Source: an uncultured Alphaproteobacteria bacterium (GTDB lineage Bacteria; Pseudomonadota; Alphaproteobacteria; JAPYRI01). From it: a DNA stretch of 42,873 nt. A model generated the notes under the pieces. The model saw only the letters and a list, made by a program, of their open reading frames with translations. It was not told the origin of the DNA and ran no database searches. The position numbers and the translations under genes were made by a program. This document shows, one piece after another, positions 2,512 through 36,719 of the stretch; the stretch's first letter is position 1; every line of letters begins with the position of its first letter. The stretch covers positions 1 through 42,873 of the forward strand of contig CAYOOG010000002.1 of assembly GCA_964405515.1 (NCBI GenBank). The letters run 5' to 3'.

Positions 2512-4742
2512 GCCGGGCGCACGAATGACGCGATAACCTTCTTGCGGCCGGTCTCGCGAAAGTCGACGGTCAGCTTGCTACCGTCCACTTCAACCACTTT
2601 TCCGTTGCCGAATTTCTTGTGGTGAACCCTATCACCCGGGCCGTAACCGACCTCGGCCGCTTCACCAAAGTCATAATCGGCCGCATCGAACCCCGCCGAA
2701 AACGTTTCGCCCTCGTGCAATCCCGCTCCCTTAATCTGGCGTGGCTGTTCGTAGACGCCGGGCTCCGAAATGCGCTCCACATGCTCGTCGGGCAACTCGT
2801 CAATGAATCGCGAGGGCAGGGTAGAGCGCCACTGGCCAAACATATGGCGGTTGGCGGCGAAACTGACCCGGGCCCTCTCCTGCGCCCGCGTCAGGCCGAC
2901 GTAGGCAAGCCGGCGTTCTTCCTCCAGTGATTCGTTGCCGCCTTCGTCGAGGGCGCGTTGGTGCGGAAATAACTCCTCTTCCCAGCCGGGCAGATAAACG
3001 GTGCGGAATTCCAGCCCCTTGGCGCTGTGCAGGGTCATCAGATTGACCTTGTCGGCGTCGGGCTCGCTATCGATGTCCATGACCAGGCTGACGTGGTCGA
3101 GGAATTCCTCAAGAGTGGAAAACTCCGCCATGGCGTGAACCAATTCGCTCAGGTTTTCCAGCCGTCCGGGTGCGTCCGCCGACTTGTCGTTCTGCCACAT
3201 CTCGGTGTAGCCGGATTCCTCGAGAATGACCTCGGCCAGTTCCGGGTGGGGGAGTGATTGCGACAGCTCCCGCCAGCGGCGGAAGTTCTCTAAAAGAGCG
3301 GCGAGCGCCTTGCGCGCCTGGGGCCGGATATCGTCGGTCTCCAACAGCGCGGCGGCGGCGCGGGTCAGTGCCATGCCGCCGCTTCGCGCCACGTGCTGCA
3401 ACGCCTTAACGGTGGTGTCGCCGAGGCCGCGTTTGGGCTTATTGACAATGCGCTCGAAGGCAAGATCATCGTCGGCGCGGGCGGCAACCCTTAGGTAAGC
3501 CACGGCGTCCCGTATTTCGAGGCGCGCGTAAAAGCGCACTCCACCGACCAGCCGGTAGGGGATTCCCAGGAGGTTGAAGCGCTCCTCGAACTCGCGGGTC
3601 TGATGAGAGGCGCGGACCAGAATCGCGACCTCGGCGAGCTTGTGCTCGCTGCCGCGCAGCGCGTCAATCTCTTCGGCGATGGTTCGGGCCTCGGCTTCAC
3701 CGTCCCAAAGGCCCTGAACTCTGATCTTGTCGCCTTCAGATACATCGGTCCAGAGTTCCTTGCCCAGGCGGCCCTGGTTGCCGGCGATCAGGCCTGATGC
3801 GGCCCCGAGGATATGGGGTGTCGAGCGGTAGTTGCGCTCCAGGCGGATGACCTGGGCGCCGGGGAAGTCATCCTCGAAGCGCAGGATGTTGCCAACCTCG
3901 GCGCCACGCCAACCGTAAATGGACTGATCGTCGTCGCCGACGCAGCAGACATTCTTGCGCTTGGCGGCCAGCAGCCGAAGCCACAGGTATTGCGCCACGT
4001 TGCTGTCCTGGTACTCGTCGACCAGGATGTATTTGATACGCTCCTGGTACTGGGTCAGAAGATCGGGTTGGCCCTTGAAAATGTCGATCGTGTGTAACAG
4101 CAGATCACCGAAGTCGGCGGCGTTGAGGGCGCGTAGCCTTTCCTGATAGGTCTTGTAAAGCTCGCCGCCCTTGCCGTTGGCGTAAGCGAAGGCCTCGCCG
4201 CGCGGTACAGAGTCCGGGCCCAGCCCCTGGTTCTTCCAGCGGTCGATAAGCGCCGCCAGGCCGCGGGCCGGCCAGCGTTTTTCATCGACATCGGCGGCGG
4301 CGATGACCTGTTTCAACAGCCGAAGCTGGTCGTCCACGTCGAGAATGGCGAAATCAGACTTCAATCCGACAATTTCCGCGTGTCGCCGCAGCATGCGCGC
4401 GGCCACCGAATGAAAAGTGCCGAGCCAGGGCATGCCCTCGACCGCGCCGCCGATGAATCCGGCCACTCGCTCTTTCATTTCCCGCGCCGCCTTATTGGTA
4501 AAGGTGACGCATAGAATTTGACCGGGCCAGGCCCGTCCCGTGGTCAGAAGATGTGCGAGCCGTGTGGTGAGCACCCGGGTCTTGCCCGTGCCCGCCCCGG
4601 CCAGCACCAGTACCGGCCCGTCCAGTGCTTCAACGGCGGAACGCTGCTCCGGGTTGAGGCCCTCCAGATAGGCCGGTTCCGATGCTGCCGCGGGTGGCGG
4701 CGCGGGTTCATCCAGGGCTTCAAGATCGAACGCGTCGGTCAT
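2508..4742 (-). CDS. uvrD: ATP-dependent DNA helicase UvrD/PcrA
   Basis: LAGAGTGKT, TFTNKAA, VDEYQD, VGDDDQSIY, LERNYRS, TLHSAKGLEF and EEERRLAYVGLTRA motifs; C-terminal Tudor-like GDRVHHKKFG. Confidence 0.95.
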   Translation of the reverse strand: MTDAFDLEALDEPAPPPAAASEPAYLEGLNPEQRSAVEALDGPVLVLAGAGTGKTRVLTTRLAHLLTTGRAWPGQILCVTFTNKAAREMKERVAGFIGGAVEGMPWLGTFHSVAARMLRRHAEIVGLKSDFAILDVDDQLRLLKQVIAAADVDEKRWPARGLAALIDRWKNQGLGPDSVPRGEAFAYANGKGGELYKTYQERLRALNAADFGDLLLHTIDIFKGQPDLLTQYQERIKYILVDEYQDSNVAQYLWLRLLAAKRKNVCCVGDDDQSIYGWRGAEVGNILRFEDDFPGAQVIRLERNYRSTPHILGAASGLIAGNQGRLGKELWTDVSEGDKIRVQGLWDGEAEARTIAEEIDALRGSEHKLAEVAILVRASHQTREFEERFNLLGIPYRLVGGVRFYARLEIRDAVAYLRVAARADDDLAFERIVNKPKRGLGDTTVKALQHVARSGGMALTRAAAALLETDDIRPQARKALAALLENFRRWRELSQSLPHPELAEVILEESGYTEMWQNDKSADAPGRLENLSELVHAMAEFSTLEEFLDHVSLVMDIDSEPDADKVNLMTLHSAKGLEFRTVYLPGWEEELFPHQRALDEGGNESLEEERRLAYVGLTRAQERARVSFAANRHMFGQWRSTLPSRFIDELPDEHVERISEPGVYEQPRQIKGAGLHEGETFSAGFDAADYDFGEAAEVGYGPGDRVHHKKFGNGKVVEVDGSKLTVDFRETGRKKVIASFVRPA

Positions 4743-32101: not shown

Positions 32102-33766
32102 ATGGCAAGCGATTTAACCATAGCTCTGGCTCAGATCAACCCCGTCGTCGGCGATGTGGCGGGCAACGCCAAGGCCATCCGCGAGGCCCGCGCCCGCGCC
32201 GCCCAGGCGCGCTCGGACCTGGTCGTCTTCAGCGAGTTGGTGTTGGCCGGTTATCCGCCCGAGGACTTGGTTCTGAAGCCCGCCTTCCAAAAGGAGGTGG
32301 AGGCCGCCGCCAAGACCCTGGCCAAGGAAACCGCCGACGGCGGCCCCGCCGTGCTGCTCGGGGCTCCGTGGATTCATGACGGGCATTTGTACAATGCGGC
32401 GCTGTTGCTGGATGGCGGCAGGATCGAGGCCGTGCGCATGAAGCATCACCTGCCCAATTACGGGGTGTTCGATGAAAAGCGGGTCTTCGAGGAAGGTCAG
32501 ATGCCGGAGCCGATGACCTGCCGCGGTGTCAAGCTGGGTGTCATGGTCTGCGAAGACATGTGGATGGGCGACGTCACCGGCCATCTGGCCGAGGAGGGCG
32601 CGGAAATTTTGGTGATCCTCAACGGCTCGCCTTTCGAGGATGAAAAAGGCGACGAGCGCCGCTCGCTGGCTGCCGCCCGCGTGGCAGAGACCGGCCTGGG
32701 GCTGGTCTACGTCAATCAGGTTGGCGGCCAGGACGAACTGGTCTTTGATGGCGCATCTTTCGTGATGAACGGCGATGGCACCATTGCCGCTCACACGCCC
32801 GATTGGGTGGAGGACGTGGTCGCGACCGACTGGCGGCACCTGGGCGACGGGCGTTGGGTGTGCGAGCCCGGGCCCGTGGCGCCGACCGCCGAGCGGCTCG
32901 AATCCTTGTACCAGGCCATGGTCATGGGTTTGCGCGACTACGTGAACAAGAATCGCTTCAGCGGCGTGGTTTTGGGACTCTCGGGTGGTATCGATAGCGC
33001 GCTTTCCGCCACCGTGGCCGTGGATGCCCTGGGCCCCGCCCGTGTTCATTGCGTTCTCATGCCGTCCAAGATCACCTCCAAGGCGAGCATCGACGATGCG
33101 ACGGAGTGCGCCAGACTTCTTTGCGCCGCAGCCGATACCGTGCCCATCGGCGCCAGCGTTGATGCTTTTGGCGGTATGCTGGCGGATGTATTCAAGAATA
33201 CCGAGGCGGACACCACCGAGGAAAACCTGCAGGCTCGCGCCCGCGGCGTCGTGTTGATGGCCCTGTCCAATAAGTTTGGATACATGGTGCTGACAACGGG
33301 TAATAAATCCGAGGTCTCGGTGGGTTATTCGACCTTGTACGGCGATCTTTGCGGGGGCTATTCGGTATTGAAGGACGCTTACAAGACAACGGTTTATAAG
33401 CTCGTGGACTGGCGCAACAAACACGTGCCCATAGGGGCGATGGGCCCCAAAGGCCGCGTCATACCCGAGAATATCGTCACCAAGGCGCCCAGCGCCGAAT
33501 TGAAACCGGACCAGACCGATCAGGACACGCTTCCGCCCTATGAGGAACTTGACGATATTCTTCATTGCCTGATCGAGCAGGACATGGCGGTGGACAAGAT
33601 CGCCGCCCGTGGGCACGCGCCTGAGCTGGTGGCGCGCATCGAGCACATGCTTTACGTCGCCGAGTACAAACGCCGCCAGTCGCCACCCGGAGTCAAAATC
33701 ACCCGGCGAAACTTCGGCCGCGACCGCCGCTACCCGATCACCAACGGCTTCCGGGACGCGACATGA
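32102..33766 (+). CDS. nadE: Glutamine-dependent NAD+ synthetase
   Basis: Nitrilase domain (SELVLAGYPPEDL, LPNYGVFDEKR, CEDMW) plus SGGIDS, ENLQAR, GNKSE, PSAEL and EYKRRQ. Confidence 0.95.
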   Translation: MASDLTIALAQINPVVGDVAGNAKAIREARARAAQARSDLVVFSELVLAGYPPEDLVLKPAFQKEVEAAAKTLAKETADGGPAVLLGAPWIHDGHLYNAALLLDGGRIEAVRMKHHLPNYGVFDEKRVFEEGQMPEPMTCRGVKLGVMVCEDMWMGDVTGHLAEEGAEILVILNGSPFEDEKGDERRSLAAARVAETGLGLVYVNQVGGQDELVFDGASFVMNGDGTIAAHTPDWVEDVVATDWRHLGDGRWVCEPGPVAPTAERLESLYQAMVMGLRDYVNKNRFSGVVLGLSGGIDSALSATVAVDALGPARVHCVLMPSKITSKASIDDATECARLLCAAADTVPIGASVDAFGGMLADVFKNTEADTTEENLQARARGVVLMALSNKFGYMVLTTGNKSEVSVGYSTLYGDLCGGYSVLKDAYKTTVYKLVDWRNKHVPIGAMGPKGRVIPENIVTKAPSAELKPDQTDQDTLPPYEELDDILHCLIEQDMAVDKIAARGHAPELVARIEHMLYVAEYKRRQSPPGVKITRRNFGRDRRYPITNGFRDAT

Positions 33767-33769
33767 CTA

Positions 33770-33943
33770 GGGTCCAGACTCATAGACAGGATCAAATTGG
33801 CCATATCCTCAAGGACGCGTGGAATCGCTTCAAGCTGCGGTGTCGAAGGGATCAACCGGGCGGCAAGCCTGCTTTTCACCCTTCTCCTAGCATCTTTTTG
33901 CGATTCACAGCGCCATTTGGACCCTGTCTATGAGTTTGGACCC
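33770..33943. mobile_element. Non-autonomous MITE-like element (174 bp, ~32-bp imperfect TIRs, TA target duplication)
   Basis: Left end GGGTCCAGACTCATAGACAGGATCAAATTGGC versus reverse-complemented right end GGGTCCAAACTCATAGACAGGGTCCAAATGGC (28/32 match). TA at 33768-33769 and 33944-33945. Removing the element restores ATG ACT AAA GCC CTG GTA CGC. Confidence 0.85.
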
Positions 33944-35282
33944 TAAAGCCCTGGTACGCTTTGCTCCCAGTCCCACTGGGCTTCTGCACGTCGGCAATCT
34001 GCGCGGCGCCCTGGTCAATTGGTTGTTCGCGCGGCAGACCGGCGCGGACTTCTTGCTGCGCATTGACGACACCGATACGGAACGCTCGACCGCCGAATAC
34101 AATGCTGCCATTGAGCGCGACCTGATGTGGCTCGGCCTCGAGTGGGACCAGTCGGCTCGCCAGTCGGAGCGCTTGGGGCGTTATTCAGAGGCCGAAAGCA
34201 AGCTGGTCGAGGCCGGGCGGCTCTACCCCTGTTATGAAACGCCCGAAGAACTCGAGACCAAGCGCAAGTTGCAGATGGCGCGGGGCAAGCCGCCGGTTTA
34301 TGACCGCGCGGCACTTGATCTGAGCGACGAGGAAAAGTCCGCCTTGGAGGCCGAGGGCTGCAAGCCGCATTGGCGGTTTCTGCTGGAGCGCGAGGTCGTT
34401 GCCTGGGAAGATATCGTGCGGGGGCCGTCTCACATCGACATGGCCAGCCTCAGCGACCCGGTGCTCATTCGCAGCGACGGGCGGCCCTTGTACATGCTGC
34501 CCTCGGTAGTGGATGACATGGACCATGGCGTCAGCCACGTCATTCGCGGCGAAGACCACGTCACCAACACGGCCGAGCAGGTACAGATATTCCAGGCTCT
34601 TGGCGGAGAGGTGCCGGCCTTCGGGCACTTCCCGTTGCTAACCGGCGCCGCCGGCGAAAGCCTGTCGAAGCGGTTGGGCTCCCTCAGCCTGGCGGCCATT
34701 CGCGACGAGGGCTATGAGCCTTTGGCGCTGCTCTCCCTGGTGGCCAAACTTGGCACGGCGGATCCGGTGGAGCCCTTCACCAGCCTGGACGCCCTGGTGA
34801 GCAGCTTCGACATCACCCGCTTCAGCCGTAGCGCCGCGCATTTCGACATGGAGGAACTCAAGCACCTTAACGCCAAGCTTTTGCACCTGCTGTCCTTTGA
34901 AGACGTAGCCGAGAAGCTGGCGGACCTGGGGCTGGAAGGGGCCGGGAAAGACTTCTGGAACGCCGTGCGGCCCAACCTTGGTGTCTTGGCCGACGCCGCC
35001 GGCTGGTGGCAGGTGGTCAACGGCGAGATCACCCCACACATCGACGACGCGGATTTCATGGCGGCGGCGGTTGGTGAACTGCCCGATGAGCCCTGGGACG
35101 ATACCACCTGGGGCGTCTGGACCAAGGCCGTGGCGGCGGCTACGGGGGCCAAGGGCAAGGCCCTGTTCCGGCCCCTGCGTCTGGCCCTCACCGGGCGCGA
35201 ACATGGACCGGAAATGAAGAATCTGCTACCTCTCATCGGCCCGGCCCGGGCGGTTGCCCGGCTGAGTAGTGAATCGGTTTAA
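33930..35282 (+). CDS. gltX: Glutamate-tRNA ligase
   Basis: [29 protein letters not shown] and PLRLALTG motifs; the present start lies inside the MITE right TIR. Confidence 0.95.
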
Positions 35283-35315: not shown

Positions 35316-36719
35316 ATGGGGCTCGTACTCTACAATACGGCGGAGCGCCGGAAACAGGAATTCGCGCCGCTGAAGGCGGGGCGCGTGGGCATGTACGTCT
35401 GCGGGCCCACGGTCTACAGCGAGGCGCATATCGGTAACGCCCGCCCGGTCATTGTTTTCGACGTGCTTTACCGGTTGCTCAGGCGCGAGCATGGCGTGGC
35501 CAACGTAAAATATGTGCGCAACATCACCGACGTGGATGACAAAATCATTGCCGCCGCGGCGGAAAGCGGCGAGCCCATCGACGAGTTGACCACGCGCACG
35601 ACAAGAATCTATCACGAGGACATGGCGGCCTTGGGCGCTCTGCCGCCCGACGAGGAGCCCCGCGCCACGGCCCATATCAAGGAAATGCTGGCCCTGGTGG
35701 AAGACCTGATCGCCAAAGGCAATGCTTACGAGGGCAAAGGCGAAGGAAAAGGCCACGTGCTGTTCGAGGTATCCTCCATGGCCGACTACGGCGCGCTTTC
35801 CGGCCACAACCGCGATGAGCTGATCGCCGGGGCCCGGGTTGAGGTGGCATCCTATAAGCGCGACCCGGCCGATTTCGTGCTCTGGAAACCGTCCAGCGAC
35901 GATCAGCCGGGCTGGGACAGTCCCTGGGGCCGGGGGCGGCCGGGCTGGCACCTGGAATGTTCAGCCATGAGCGAGATCTATTTGGGGCGCACCTTTGACA
36001 TCCACGGCGGTGGCCAGGATTTGATCTTCCCTCACCATGAAAACGAGCGCGCGCAATCGACCTGCGCCCACGGTCAGGGCAGCTTCGCGCAATTCTGGAT
36101 GCACAACGCCTACCTCATCGTCGAGGGCGAGAAGATGTCCAAGTCCCTTGGCAACATTCGCACCGTGCGTGAGTTATTGGCCGAAGCACCGGGCGAGGCC
36201 ATCCGCCTCAACATGCTCTCCACCCACTACCGCCAACCGCTCGACTGGACGGCGGAAGGCTTGACCCGCGCCAGGACCAATCTTGACCGCCTGTATACGG
36301 CGCTTGGCCGGCTGTCGGACGTGGCGGTGGACGTGGGCCCCGATGATGTGCCGGCGGTCGTGCTGGCGGCCCTGGAAGACGACCTCAACACGCCCCAGGC
36401 GCTGACCGAGATTTACGCCCTCGCCGGCGTGGCCAACAAGGCGGAGGGCGAAGCCGATCAGGCTGCCGCTAAGGCAGCGCTCCTGGCGGCGGGTGACCTC
36501 TTGGGCCTGTTGCAGCAGGACCCGGGGTCTTGGCTGAAGGACGCCAGGGAAGGGGAAATCAGCAGTGAAGAAATCGAGGCCTTGATCGAGCAGCGCGGCG
36601 CCGCGCGGGCGCAGAAGAACTTTGCCGAGGCCGACCGGATTGGAGATTTGCTGAAGGTTCATGTCGATCTGTTTGATGGCAGTGACCCAATGGCAACGGG
36701 CTGGAGGCGCAAGCGATGA
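35316..36719 (+). CDS. cysS: Cysteine-tRNA ligase
   Basis: YVCGPTVY, HIGN, NITDVDDK, GRPGWHLECS, FPHHENE and KMSKS motifs. Confidence 0.97.
   Translation: MGLVLYNTAERRKQEFAPLKAGRVGMYVCGPTVYSEAHIGNARPVIVFDVLYRLLRREHGVANVKYVRNITDVDDKIIAAAAESGEPIDELTTRTTRIYHEDMAALGALPPDEEPRATAHIKEMLALVEDLIAKGNAYEGKGEGKGHVLFEVSSMADYGALSGHNRDELIAGARVEVASYKRDPADFVLWKPSSDDQPGWDSPWGRGRPGWHLECSAMSEIYLGRTFDIHGGGQDLIFPHHENERAQSTCAHGQGSFAQFWMHNAYLIVEGEKMSKSLGNIRTVRELLAEAPGEAIRLNMLSTHYRQPLDWTAEGLTRARTNLDRLYTALGRLSDVAVDVGPDDVPAVVLAALEDDLNTPQALTEIYALAGVANKAEGEADQAAAKAALLAAGDLLGLLQQDPGSWLKDAREGEISSEEIEALIEQRGAARAQKNFAEADRIGDLLKVHVDLFDGSDPMATGWRRKR

Follow-up and report, generated by a model that had tools for sequence, protein, structure and literature searches.

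A miniature inverted-repeat element at codons 2 and 3 of an alphaproteobacterial gltX, and a start codon that its terminal repeat may provide

Introduction

Insertion sequences (ISs) activate neighbouring genes through outward-facing promoters. Here we describe a mobile element whose end may provide its neighbour with a signal of another kind. In a 42,873-nucleotide stretch of DNA from an uncultured alphaproteobacterium (contig CAYOOG010000002.1 of assembly GCA_964405515.1; hereafter the window), a transposable element of the miniature inverted-repeat type (MITE) lies at the 5' end of gltX, which encodes glutamate--tRNA ligase and directly follows nadE. As in the outward-promoter ISs, the terminus of an element would give the adjacent host gene an expression signal; unlike them, the signal would be translational, a start codon, and a scan of the MITE found nothing promoter-like.

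Small palindromic elements that persist within coding genes are the nearest comparison. In two MITE reviews (PMC2229807, PMC10969869), Rickettsia palindromic elements (RPE), ERIC, YPAL and the 107-bp Correia element are described as fusing in frame to host open reading frames (ORFs), with YPAL giving part of a signal peptide. The element studied here resembles them in size, palindromic structure and persistence in coding genes by way of an open, in-phase frame, and a scar in a glycosyltransferase gene of the same genome (residues RVQTH, contig C6) corresponds to just such a fusion. The difference is that at gltX, and at a second gene, padH, the element is apparently not translated into the host protein but breaks the frame and supplies a new start from its terminal inverted repeat (TIR); read-through of the RPE type is seen only in the 15-nt C6 scar, not at gltX or padH. 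Bacterial intragenic MITEs are known mainly as in-frame passengers (RPE, ERIC), whereas here the frame is broken and the gene apparently survives. Neither review contains the words 'start codon' (0 occurrences each), and exact-word matching in the open-access full-text literature found no TIR-borne start that replaces a host start together with a relay frame, that is, a frame leading from the old start through the element to the new one. In-frame fusions of MITEs to ORFs are thus already known, and what appears to be new is a frame-breaking insertion at codons 2/3 with a TIR-supplied start.

Three further systems share parts of this arrangement. Experiments have validated termination-reinitiation at ATGA overlaps, and the same paper discusses structures that the upstream ribosome melts (PMC6728339). 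The gltX locus is alike in having two ATGA overlaps and a downstream start within a structure that an upstream ribosome would melt; it differs in that the intermediate cistron is a mobile element and that coupling is read from sequence only. In IS870 and ISMt1, a CTAG target completes the transposon reading frame with a stop codon (PMC13630536, citing Fournier et al. 1993). There, as here, terminus and TA-containing target jointly form a translation signal, but the signal is a stop for the transposase there and a start for the host gene here. The IS427 group, exemplified by IS1248, ISPaes1 and ISPpa6 of Paracoccus (PMC3281130), matches the mobile source of our element in size, TA duplication, short TIRs starting with GG, a DUF4096 OrfA plus a DDE OrfB, and multicopy occurrence in Alphaproteobacteria. 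The differences are that the IS of the source genome is visible only as ends of ~50 nt and that the MITE has CATAGA in place of CATTAA. Our overall explanation for the locus, which we moderately favour, is that MITE insertion was followed by starts from the TIR ATG, by a translational relay across the element and by lock-in at the gene.

An element at codons 2 and 3 of gltX

The repeat finder delimited inverted arms at 33768-33801 and 33912-33945 of the window, each 34 nt including the TA, 88% complementary and 110 nt apart. Without the TA, the TIRs are 32 nt long, match at 28/32 positions and enclose a 174-bp element (33770-33943); the original prediction had proposed exactly this element with TA on both sides, and repeat finder and sequence agree with it. 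The flanks read ...GACATGACTA/GGGTCC...GGACCC/TAAAGCCCTGGTACGC, with slashes at the element borders, and the region as a whole reads ...CGGGACGCGACATGACTA/GGGTCCAGACTCATAGACAGG...CCTGTCTATGAGTTTGGACCC/TAAAGCCCTGGTACGCTTTGCTCCC. TA stands on both sides of the element and was therefore duplicated. Removal in silico of the element and one TA yields ATG ACT AAA GCC CTG GTA CGC TTT (MTKALVRF), the normal gltX N-terminus that had been predicted, with an ATG overlapping the nadE TGA, and Pfam matches on both genes are in keeping with this. The insertion TA straddles codons 2 and 3 of gltX (ATG AC[TA] AA).

In Logan unitigs from four metagenome runs, the left junction is crossed at 33398-33841 and 33712-33841 and the right junction at 33917-34400, with 0 differences in every case, which excludes an assembly artefact at the occupied site. 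These are DNA runs from one study that is possibly the source of this assembly, with no RNA run among those listed. The whole MITE was spanned by no single contig of the four runs, and no empty-site joint was found in their unitigs and contigs.

At the class level, 27 relatives' loci were compared, and in 15 of them nadE is directly followed by gltX. All 15 adjacent loci have a gltX start 2-8 codons before the RFAPSPTG motif and a short or overlapping junction, and the MITE was found at none of these 15 junctions. An ATGA overlap with the nadE stop occurs in 3/15, and several native gltX starts read ATGACT or ATGACC. Since relatives' junctions lack the MITE and copies of it are dispersed, insertion at codons 2/3 is the only reasonable reading, and we conclude that the MITE very probably inserted there, in the nadE-linked gltX. 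The original prediction had called for a search for empty nadE-gltX sites in relatives; MITE-free junctions are seen at the class level (15/15), and no empty site was found within the lineage. That gap counts against our interpretation, as do three related points: the best gltX relatives among metagenome contigs are only 62-66% identical, the sole genome of the same family lacks nadE-gltX adjacency, and the metagenome-derived source genome is fragmented (219 contigs, 2.58 Mb, 93% complete).

The element and its cognate insertion sequence

The original prediction had anticipated further copies of the element and a cognate IS with the same TIRs, and both are present in the genome. The MITE occurs in three copies, a low number, plus a solo TIR scar on C6. 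Besides the window copy (contig C2), an intergenic copy at C20:16184-16361 is 93% identical, has TA on both sides and reads GTG at both TIR starts, and a 264-bp copy at C131:3665-3930, with 95% identity across the part in common, is flanked by TG and TA, the left TA being mutated. At 174 bp (264 bp on C131) the MITE is small and has no transposase gene; the relay ORF of 56 codons discussed below is the one long frame in it. A search of 400 other genomes of the class did not find the element. The reading of the element as an ancestral spacer was rejected, as the same element stands at unrelated loci and has its ends in common with an IS.

The left 16 nt of the MITE (TA + GGGTCCAGACTCAT) are identical, 16/16, to one end of this IS (end A). 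End A stands on 20 contig termini, ~35-50 nt from the contig ends, and continues as ...TTAAATCCACC; the other end (end B, GGGTCCGGACCCATTAACGGG) stands on 19 other contig termini, and TA precedes all 39. Such contig-terminal ends are the sequence signature of an IS of ~20 copies that broke the assembly. The body of the genome's own IS is absent from the contigs, leaving ~50 nt of each end visible, and an exact 37-nt IS end had 0 matches in public genome contigs.

A degenerate TIR pattern recovered at least 105 stretches in public genomes, and the 80 listed came mostly from Alphaproteobacteria. Among the matches listed, TA-flanked pairs at these loci delimit two size classes, complete elements (835-854 bp) and MITEs (160-278 bp), and the 854-bp element L133:2811-3664 has the ends most similar to the IS of the source genome. 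Its two transposase ORFs overlap (OrfA 3189-3578, OrfB 2824-3192); OrfA matches DUF4096 (PF13340, 86.9 bits), and OrfB matches DDE_Tnp_1 (PF01609, 66.7 bits) and DDE_Tnp_1_2 (PF13586, 59.2 bits). The IS427-group ISs of Paracoccus measure 832-865 bp and have 2-bp direct repeats and two ORFs with a frameshift (PMC3281130). Because size, 2-bp duplication and two-ORF layout match, the cognate IS is assigned, from full-length relatives elsewhere, to the IS5 family, IS427 group. Of the two families that the TA target had originally suggested, the IS5 group is thus retained with its DUF4096/DDE_Tnp_1 transposase, and IS630 was rejected, DDE_3 not being among the transposase matches.

The same comparison offers an origin for the start codon. 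The IS transposase gene is oriented from end B towards end A; the protein terminates in ...VIWWI*, and the TAA stop shares one base with the outward TIR ATG (TAATG). The TIR ATG is thus probably a by-product of the transposase stop overlap at end A, carried to end B by the symmetry of the TIRs. Where the IS has CATTAA in the inner TIR, the MITE has CATAGA and so lacks the stop that would close the host frame; all other MITE families tested carry the TIR TAA, which closes the host frame after 5 codons. As a side point, the TAATG overlap means that transposase translation could in principle couple to whatever host frame follows end A.

Proposed translation of gltX from the terminal repeat

With the element in place, the 5' end of gltX becomes ATG AGT TTG GAC CC/T AAA, so that MSLDPK... 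replaces MTK... and MSLDP are the only TIR-encoded residues (five) that join the protein. The ATG at 33930 lies 14 nt inside the right TIR and is the first ATG, GTG or TTG after an in-frame TAG at 33888-33890, which confirms the earlier proposal that the right-TIR ATG is in frame and that only the first residues change. We consider it likely that this ATG is the working start of gltX.

What the original prediction overlooked is that the new ATG is buried in a hairpin and that the frame of the old ATG ends in an ATGA on the new one. The MITE region folds as RNA to a predicted -99.6 kcal/mol, whereas 200 shuffled versions give -71.5 +/- 5.1 (z = -5.56) and 0 of them are as stable. In the predicted fold, a near-perfect long hairpin, the TIR ATG lies within a 23-bp basal stem. 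In both copies at gene starts (C2 and C131) the unpaired probability of the TIR ATG is 0.00, and that of the old ATG is 0.98 (C2) and 0.39 (C131). No recognisable Shine-Dalgarno sequence precedes ATG 33930, a point that tells against a functional start there; a scan of 33300-34200 found 0 sigma-70-like promoters, and no terminator-like site was seen in the MITE. De novo initiation at 33930 therefore looks unfavourable, given the buried ATG and the lack of a clear Shine-Dalgarno sequence and of a promoter-like site.

The alternative route is through the element. Two ATGA overlaps follow one another, nadE with the old ATG (33763-33766) and the relay ORF with the TIR ATG (33930-33933), and the cistrons are co-directional (Table 1). 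The insertions at gltX (176 bp) and padH (266 bp) are both 2 mod 3 in length, and the old frame ends at the TIR TGA. From the old ATG, the frame is open to the ATGA in all three copies (86 codons on C131), and in the reverse orientation it stops after 22 codons. Ribosomes that finish nadE would reinitiate at the old ATG by way of the ATGA overlap, translation of the 56-codon frame through the MITE would melt the hairpin, and termination at the TGA that overlaps the TIR ATG would be followed by reinitiation on gltX. Such a termination-reinitiation relay as the route to the TIR ATG is, in our estimate, close to an even call, leaning slightly against.

An open relay frame is in itself unsurprising, which weakens the case for a relay. 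Interior shuffles keep it open at rates of 35% (C2), 41% (C20) and 14% (C131), and the three copies, 93-95% identical, are not independent. Given these shuffle rates, the open frame was set aside as statistical evidence for being weak in that role.

Cleavage by an RNase III-type enzyme occurs in the hairpins of Correia elements. In a scheme that dispenses with the relay, processing of this kind, or a promoter in the MITE, would place the 5' end of the mRNA near 33930, and initiation on gltX would be ordinary or of a leaderless type. The long near-perfect hairpin with its 23-bp basal stem would suit a double-strand RNase, the open frame is statistically ordinary, and a full IS on contig C78 (below) is unable to relay, its TAA falling after 5 codons, so that another route must exist if the gene behind it is expressed. 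The absence of sigma-70-like promoters from 33300-34200 speaks against the promoter variant, however, and a cut in the stem would serve only if the AUG ended up at or close to the 5' end. Moreover, both gene-start copies keep a length of 0 mod 3, the open frame and the ATGA, including the 264-bp copy (open in 14% of shuffles), and both sites are operon-internal with tightly coupled old starts. We regard use of the TIR ATG without a relay as unlikely.

Table 1. Features of the nadE-gltX-cysS region, in window coordinates
Feature	Position	Strand	Evidence or remark
nadE (glutamine-dependent NAD+ synthetase)	32102..33766	+	Pfam NAD_synthase 229.5 bits, CN_hydrolase 116.9 bits
Old (ancestral) gltX ATG, now relay-ORF start	33763..33765	+	ATGA overlap with nadE TGA 33764-33766
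Relay ORF, 56 codons, from old ATG through whole MITE	33763..33933	+	TGA 33931-33933 overlaps new ATG (ATGA)
Left TA copy of target-site duplication	33768..33769	.	Sequence, inverted-repeat finder
MITE, 174 bp, non-autonomous derivative of an IS5-family / IS427-group IS	33770..33943	+	Copies on C20 and C131; ends shared with IS end A
Left TIR	33770..33801	+	Inverted-repeat finder
Right TIR, holds new start codon	33912..33943	+	Inverted-repeat finder
TIR-borne ATG, first in-frame start of present gltX	33930..33932	+	Sequence, ORF list; inside basal hairpin stem
gltX (glutamate--tRNA ligase), nadE-linked paralog, 450 aa, intact	33930..35282	+	Pfam tRNA-synt_1c 246 bits and Anticodon_2
Right TA copy of duplication	33944..33945	.	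T is base 3 of Pro codon CCT, A is base 1 of AAA
cysS, directly downstream of gltX	35316..36719	+	Pfam tRNA-synt_1e 388.5 bits

Two gltX paralogs

The window gltX scores 369.9 bits against TIGR00464 (cutoff 289.95) and is intact, an orthologue of a widely conserved nadE-linked gene. It is one of three PF00749 matches in the source genome. The second is a full gltX at C118:1521-2924 (467 aa, TIGR00464 498 bits), whose presence weighs against our interpretation, as the window copy could be dispensable or poorly expressed; the third, C9:5221-6144, is GluQRS (307 aa). A paralog that covers gltX function had been named at the outset as the refuting case: the paralog does exist on C118 and may cover the function, yet the window copy is intact and above the cutoff.

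The insertion may accordingly be read as having crippled the window gltX, with the C118 paralog covering GluRS, the in-frame ATG a one-in-three coincidence and the frame still intact for lack of time. The second bona fide gltX and GluQRS fit this account, as do a TIR ATG that is fully base-paired and lacks a Shine-Dalgarno sequence, and IS copies that interrupt other genes here. The intact 450-aa frame above the equivalog cutoff does not. If the genes concerned were dispensable, insertions would be expected anywhere in them, whereas gltX, padH and the glycosyltransferase scar all have codon-2/3 placement in the relay-competent orientation (P ~0.0005-0.01, two extra cases). Exact placement at codons 2/3 in three genes and the intact gltX thus argue that function has been retained. 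None of the three PF00749 matches is of the glnS type, and two GluRS paralogs without a glnS-type match suggest, at the level of gene content, a transamidation route to Gln-tRNA. Both GluRS paralogs may therefore be needed for the Glu- and Gln-tRNA pathways. We consider a crippled window gltX improbable.

Recurrence at other genes of the source genome

When frames were read outward from every TIR ATG in the source genome (47 ends), three were long and began at a genuine N-terminus, namely gltX, padH (C131) and a lipoprotein gene (C78). Together with a scar in a GT4 glycosyltransferase gene, these provide a recurrence, within this genome, of in-frame TIR starts at gene 5' ends, a tally of which the original prediction had proposed.

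The C131 MITE follows the ATG GCT of a 425-aa padH (PadH equivalog NF045765, 631 bits; residues 8-425 align to model positions 2-416 of 416). Orientation and phase are as at gltX (ATG-NCT-A geometry), and the ATGA exit is kept. Although it exceeds the other two copies by 90 nt, this copy still has a length of 0 mod 3 and an open relay frame. The old padH ATG lies 8 nt after the stop of the upstream gene. The surrounding region (C131:1078-6049) is a por/pad-type operon with 2-oxoacid:ferredoxin-oxidoreductase-type subunits and overlapping stops and starts.

At C78, a full IS is fused by its end B, in frame, to the 5' end of a 431-aa lipoprotein gene (MGPDPRLSYTAICAVVSFSLSGC). The fusion places the lipobox Cys at residue 23, compared with ~19-24 in homologs, and the old frame runs for 5 codons before the TIR TAA closes it. 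The old start of this gene was not located, with contigs C172 and C206 both plausible partners, which makes the case less secure. A database protein, P0001, is 100% identical to the C78 fusion and starts MGPDP...; its existence means that gene callers already annotate TIR ATGs as starts. For annotation, this implies that MSLDP... and MGPDP... N-termini are already being predicted.

On C6 (7474-7494; minus strand of L171, ~1975-1995), the GT4 glycosyltransferase gene reads ATG CCT A + GGGTCCAGACTCAT + AATCCC. The TIR remnant is in frame (MP-RVQTH-NPVAFILKGYP), its 15 nt adding five residues, and the ATG overlaps the TAA of the upstream gene (TAATG). In GT4 homologs with the K.YP..SE.F motif (114/120), the commonest N-terminal length before K is 9 (n=18, range 5-33); at C6 the length is 14, five above it. 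The locus looks like an in-frame 15-nt deletion scar of a former codon-2/3 insertion.

Other insertions disrupt genes and so stand against our explanation as well as against a tie between the element family and gene starts. A full IS interrupts a fliQ-type gene (C103:37-255; Bac_export_3 from model position 19 of 74), and another interrupts mgtE just before the MgtE membrane domain (C193:15-506). Both remnants are in frame with the TIR ATG. Most IS copies in the source genome lie away from gene starts.

Chance, target preference and a proposed lock-in

The probability that a single insertion shows the gene-start geometry is 0.0013-0.0064 under crude nulls. With the trigger case excluded, the geometry in one of the two other MITE copies has P = 0.003-0.013, and in at least two of 24 other elements P = 0.0005-0.01, both under the same crude null. 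The null model, built on an ORF-based gene set, is itself a reason for caution. Frame statistics from stop-free runs (11/7/0) were rejected as biased, by long antisense runs in GC-rich DNA and by TIR stops in the two other frames.

Target preference leaves the excess unaccounted for. The target logo is A-Y-TA only, with no ATG component, and sequence preference therefore fails to explain it. In other genomes, ATG occurs at -7..-5 in 1/154 flanks, and that one is not a gene start. Sixteen distinct flanks have ATG at -9, -8 or -7, of which 11 could be reconstructed and give ORFs of 1-27 codons that are not gene starts. Over L063-L167 there is an ATG excess at -9 and -8 of the target flanks (9 and 6 of 154 distinct flanks, compared with ~2.4 expected). 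Simple survivorship also fails to explain the gene-start excess, because ~15,000 intergenic TA sites are available.

It could be supposed that selection shaped the element family to aim for gene starts and provide them with a start codon, the general strategy that the original prediction had offered as one option. Three or four gene-start cases in one genome would fit, as would an ATG at the same offset in both IS ends and an outward TIR ATG kept in 155/156 TIR ends elsewhere, although to be matched by the search pattern at all each locus had to carry CAT at one of its ends. Beyond this genome, however, the proposal finds no support: an ATG two codons upstream was found in 0/44 complete elements of other genomes among the matches listed. 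An in-frame GTG stands there in 2/44, both within longer open frames and hence mid-gene, and in 5/7 elements elsewhere with a long downstream frame the old frame is closed after 5 codons by a TAA inside the TIR; these three results also weigh against our own explanation. The target logo, the flanks and the position of most IS copies here speak against an evolved strategy, and the ATG is explained more simply by the transposase stop overlap (TAATG) and TIR symmetry. An evolved start-donating strategy is thus highly unlikely in our judgement.

The gene-start cases are most likely survivors locked in by selection. The sequence of events that we propose, beginning before the relay set out above, would be that a transposase of the IS427 group (~20 IS copies in the genome) mobilised the MITE into the TA at codons 2/3 of gltX. 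The body of the gene would have been cut off from its own start, and the TIR ATG would now be read instead. The gene-start excess would then reflect lock-in: a copy that serves as the only start of a needed gene would not be lost, save by an in-frame deletion as at C6, and neutral intergenic copies would decay or be deleted from the small genome. If this is true, the locus provides a concrete route for the exaptation of transposon ends as translation-initiation signals, a constructive-neutral ratchet that holds an insertion in place at a needed gene and whose escape route is visible as a scar, and a natural hairpin-gated device for cistron coupling that could be reused in synthetic operons.

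A further reading, tentative and rather doubtful to us, takes the MITE lineage as a self-contained translational relay cassette. It would combine an accessible entry in the codon-2 phase of the host, a stop-free frame of 0 mod 3 and an exit ATGA that restarts the host gene from the hairpin-locked TIR ATG. Such a cassette could occupy the first codons of operon-internal genes and become irremovable from them, host translation would become strictly dependent on the upstream gene, and the 15-nt scar would be the only exit. If so, selfish DNA would have found a new niche, and operon stoichiometry could be rewired in a new way.

Minor observations

An Rfam scan of 33500-34200 found no known RNA family, the sole match being a sub-threshold eukaryotic lncRNA model (16.1 vs 50 bits). 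At C195:2608-2640, two TIR stubs abut (TA + 14-nt end-A TIR + TA + 12-nt palindrome GGGTCCGGACCC + TA), perhaps the footprint of an excision or a deletion; the frame of 134 aa leading outward from this site has no Pfam match. In several alphaproteobacterial genomes, the same TIR (GGGTCCRGACYCATTAA) also bounds other MITE families, which are, among the matches listed, mostly TA-flanked. They fall at ~262-278 bp (L077, L079, L089, L095, L101, L103, L113, L140 and L141) and at ~160-167 bp (L080, L094 and L117).

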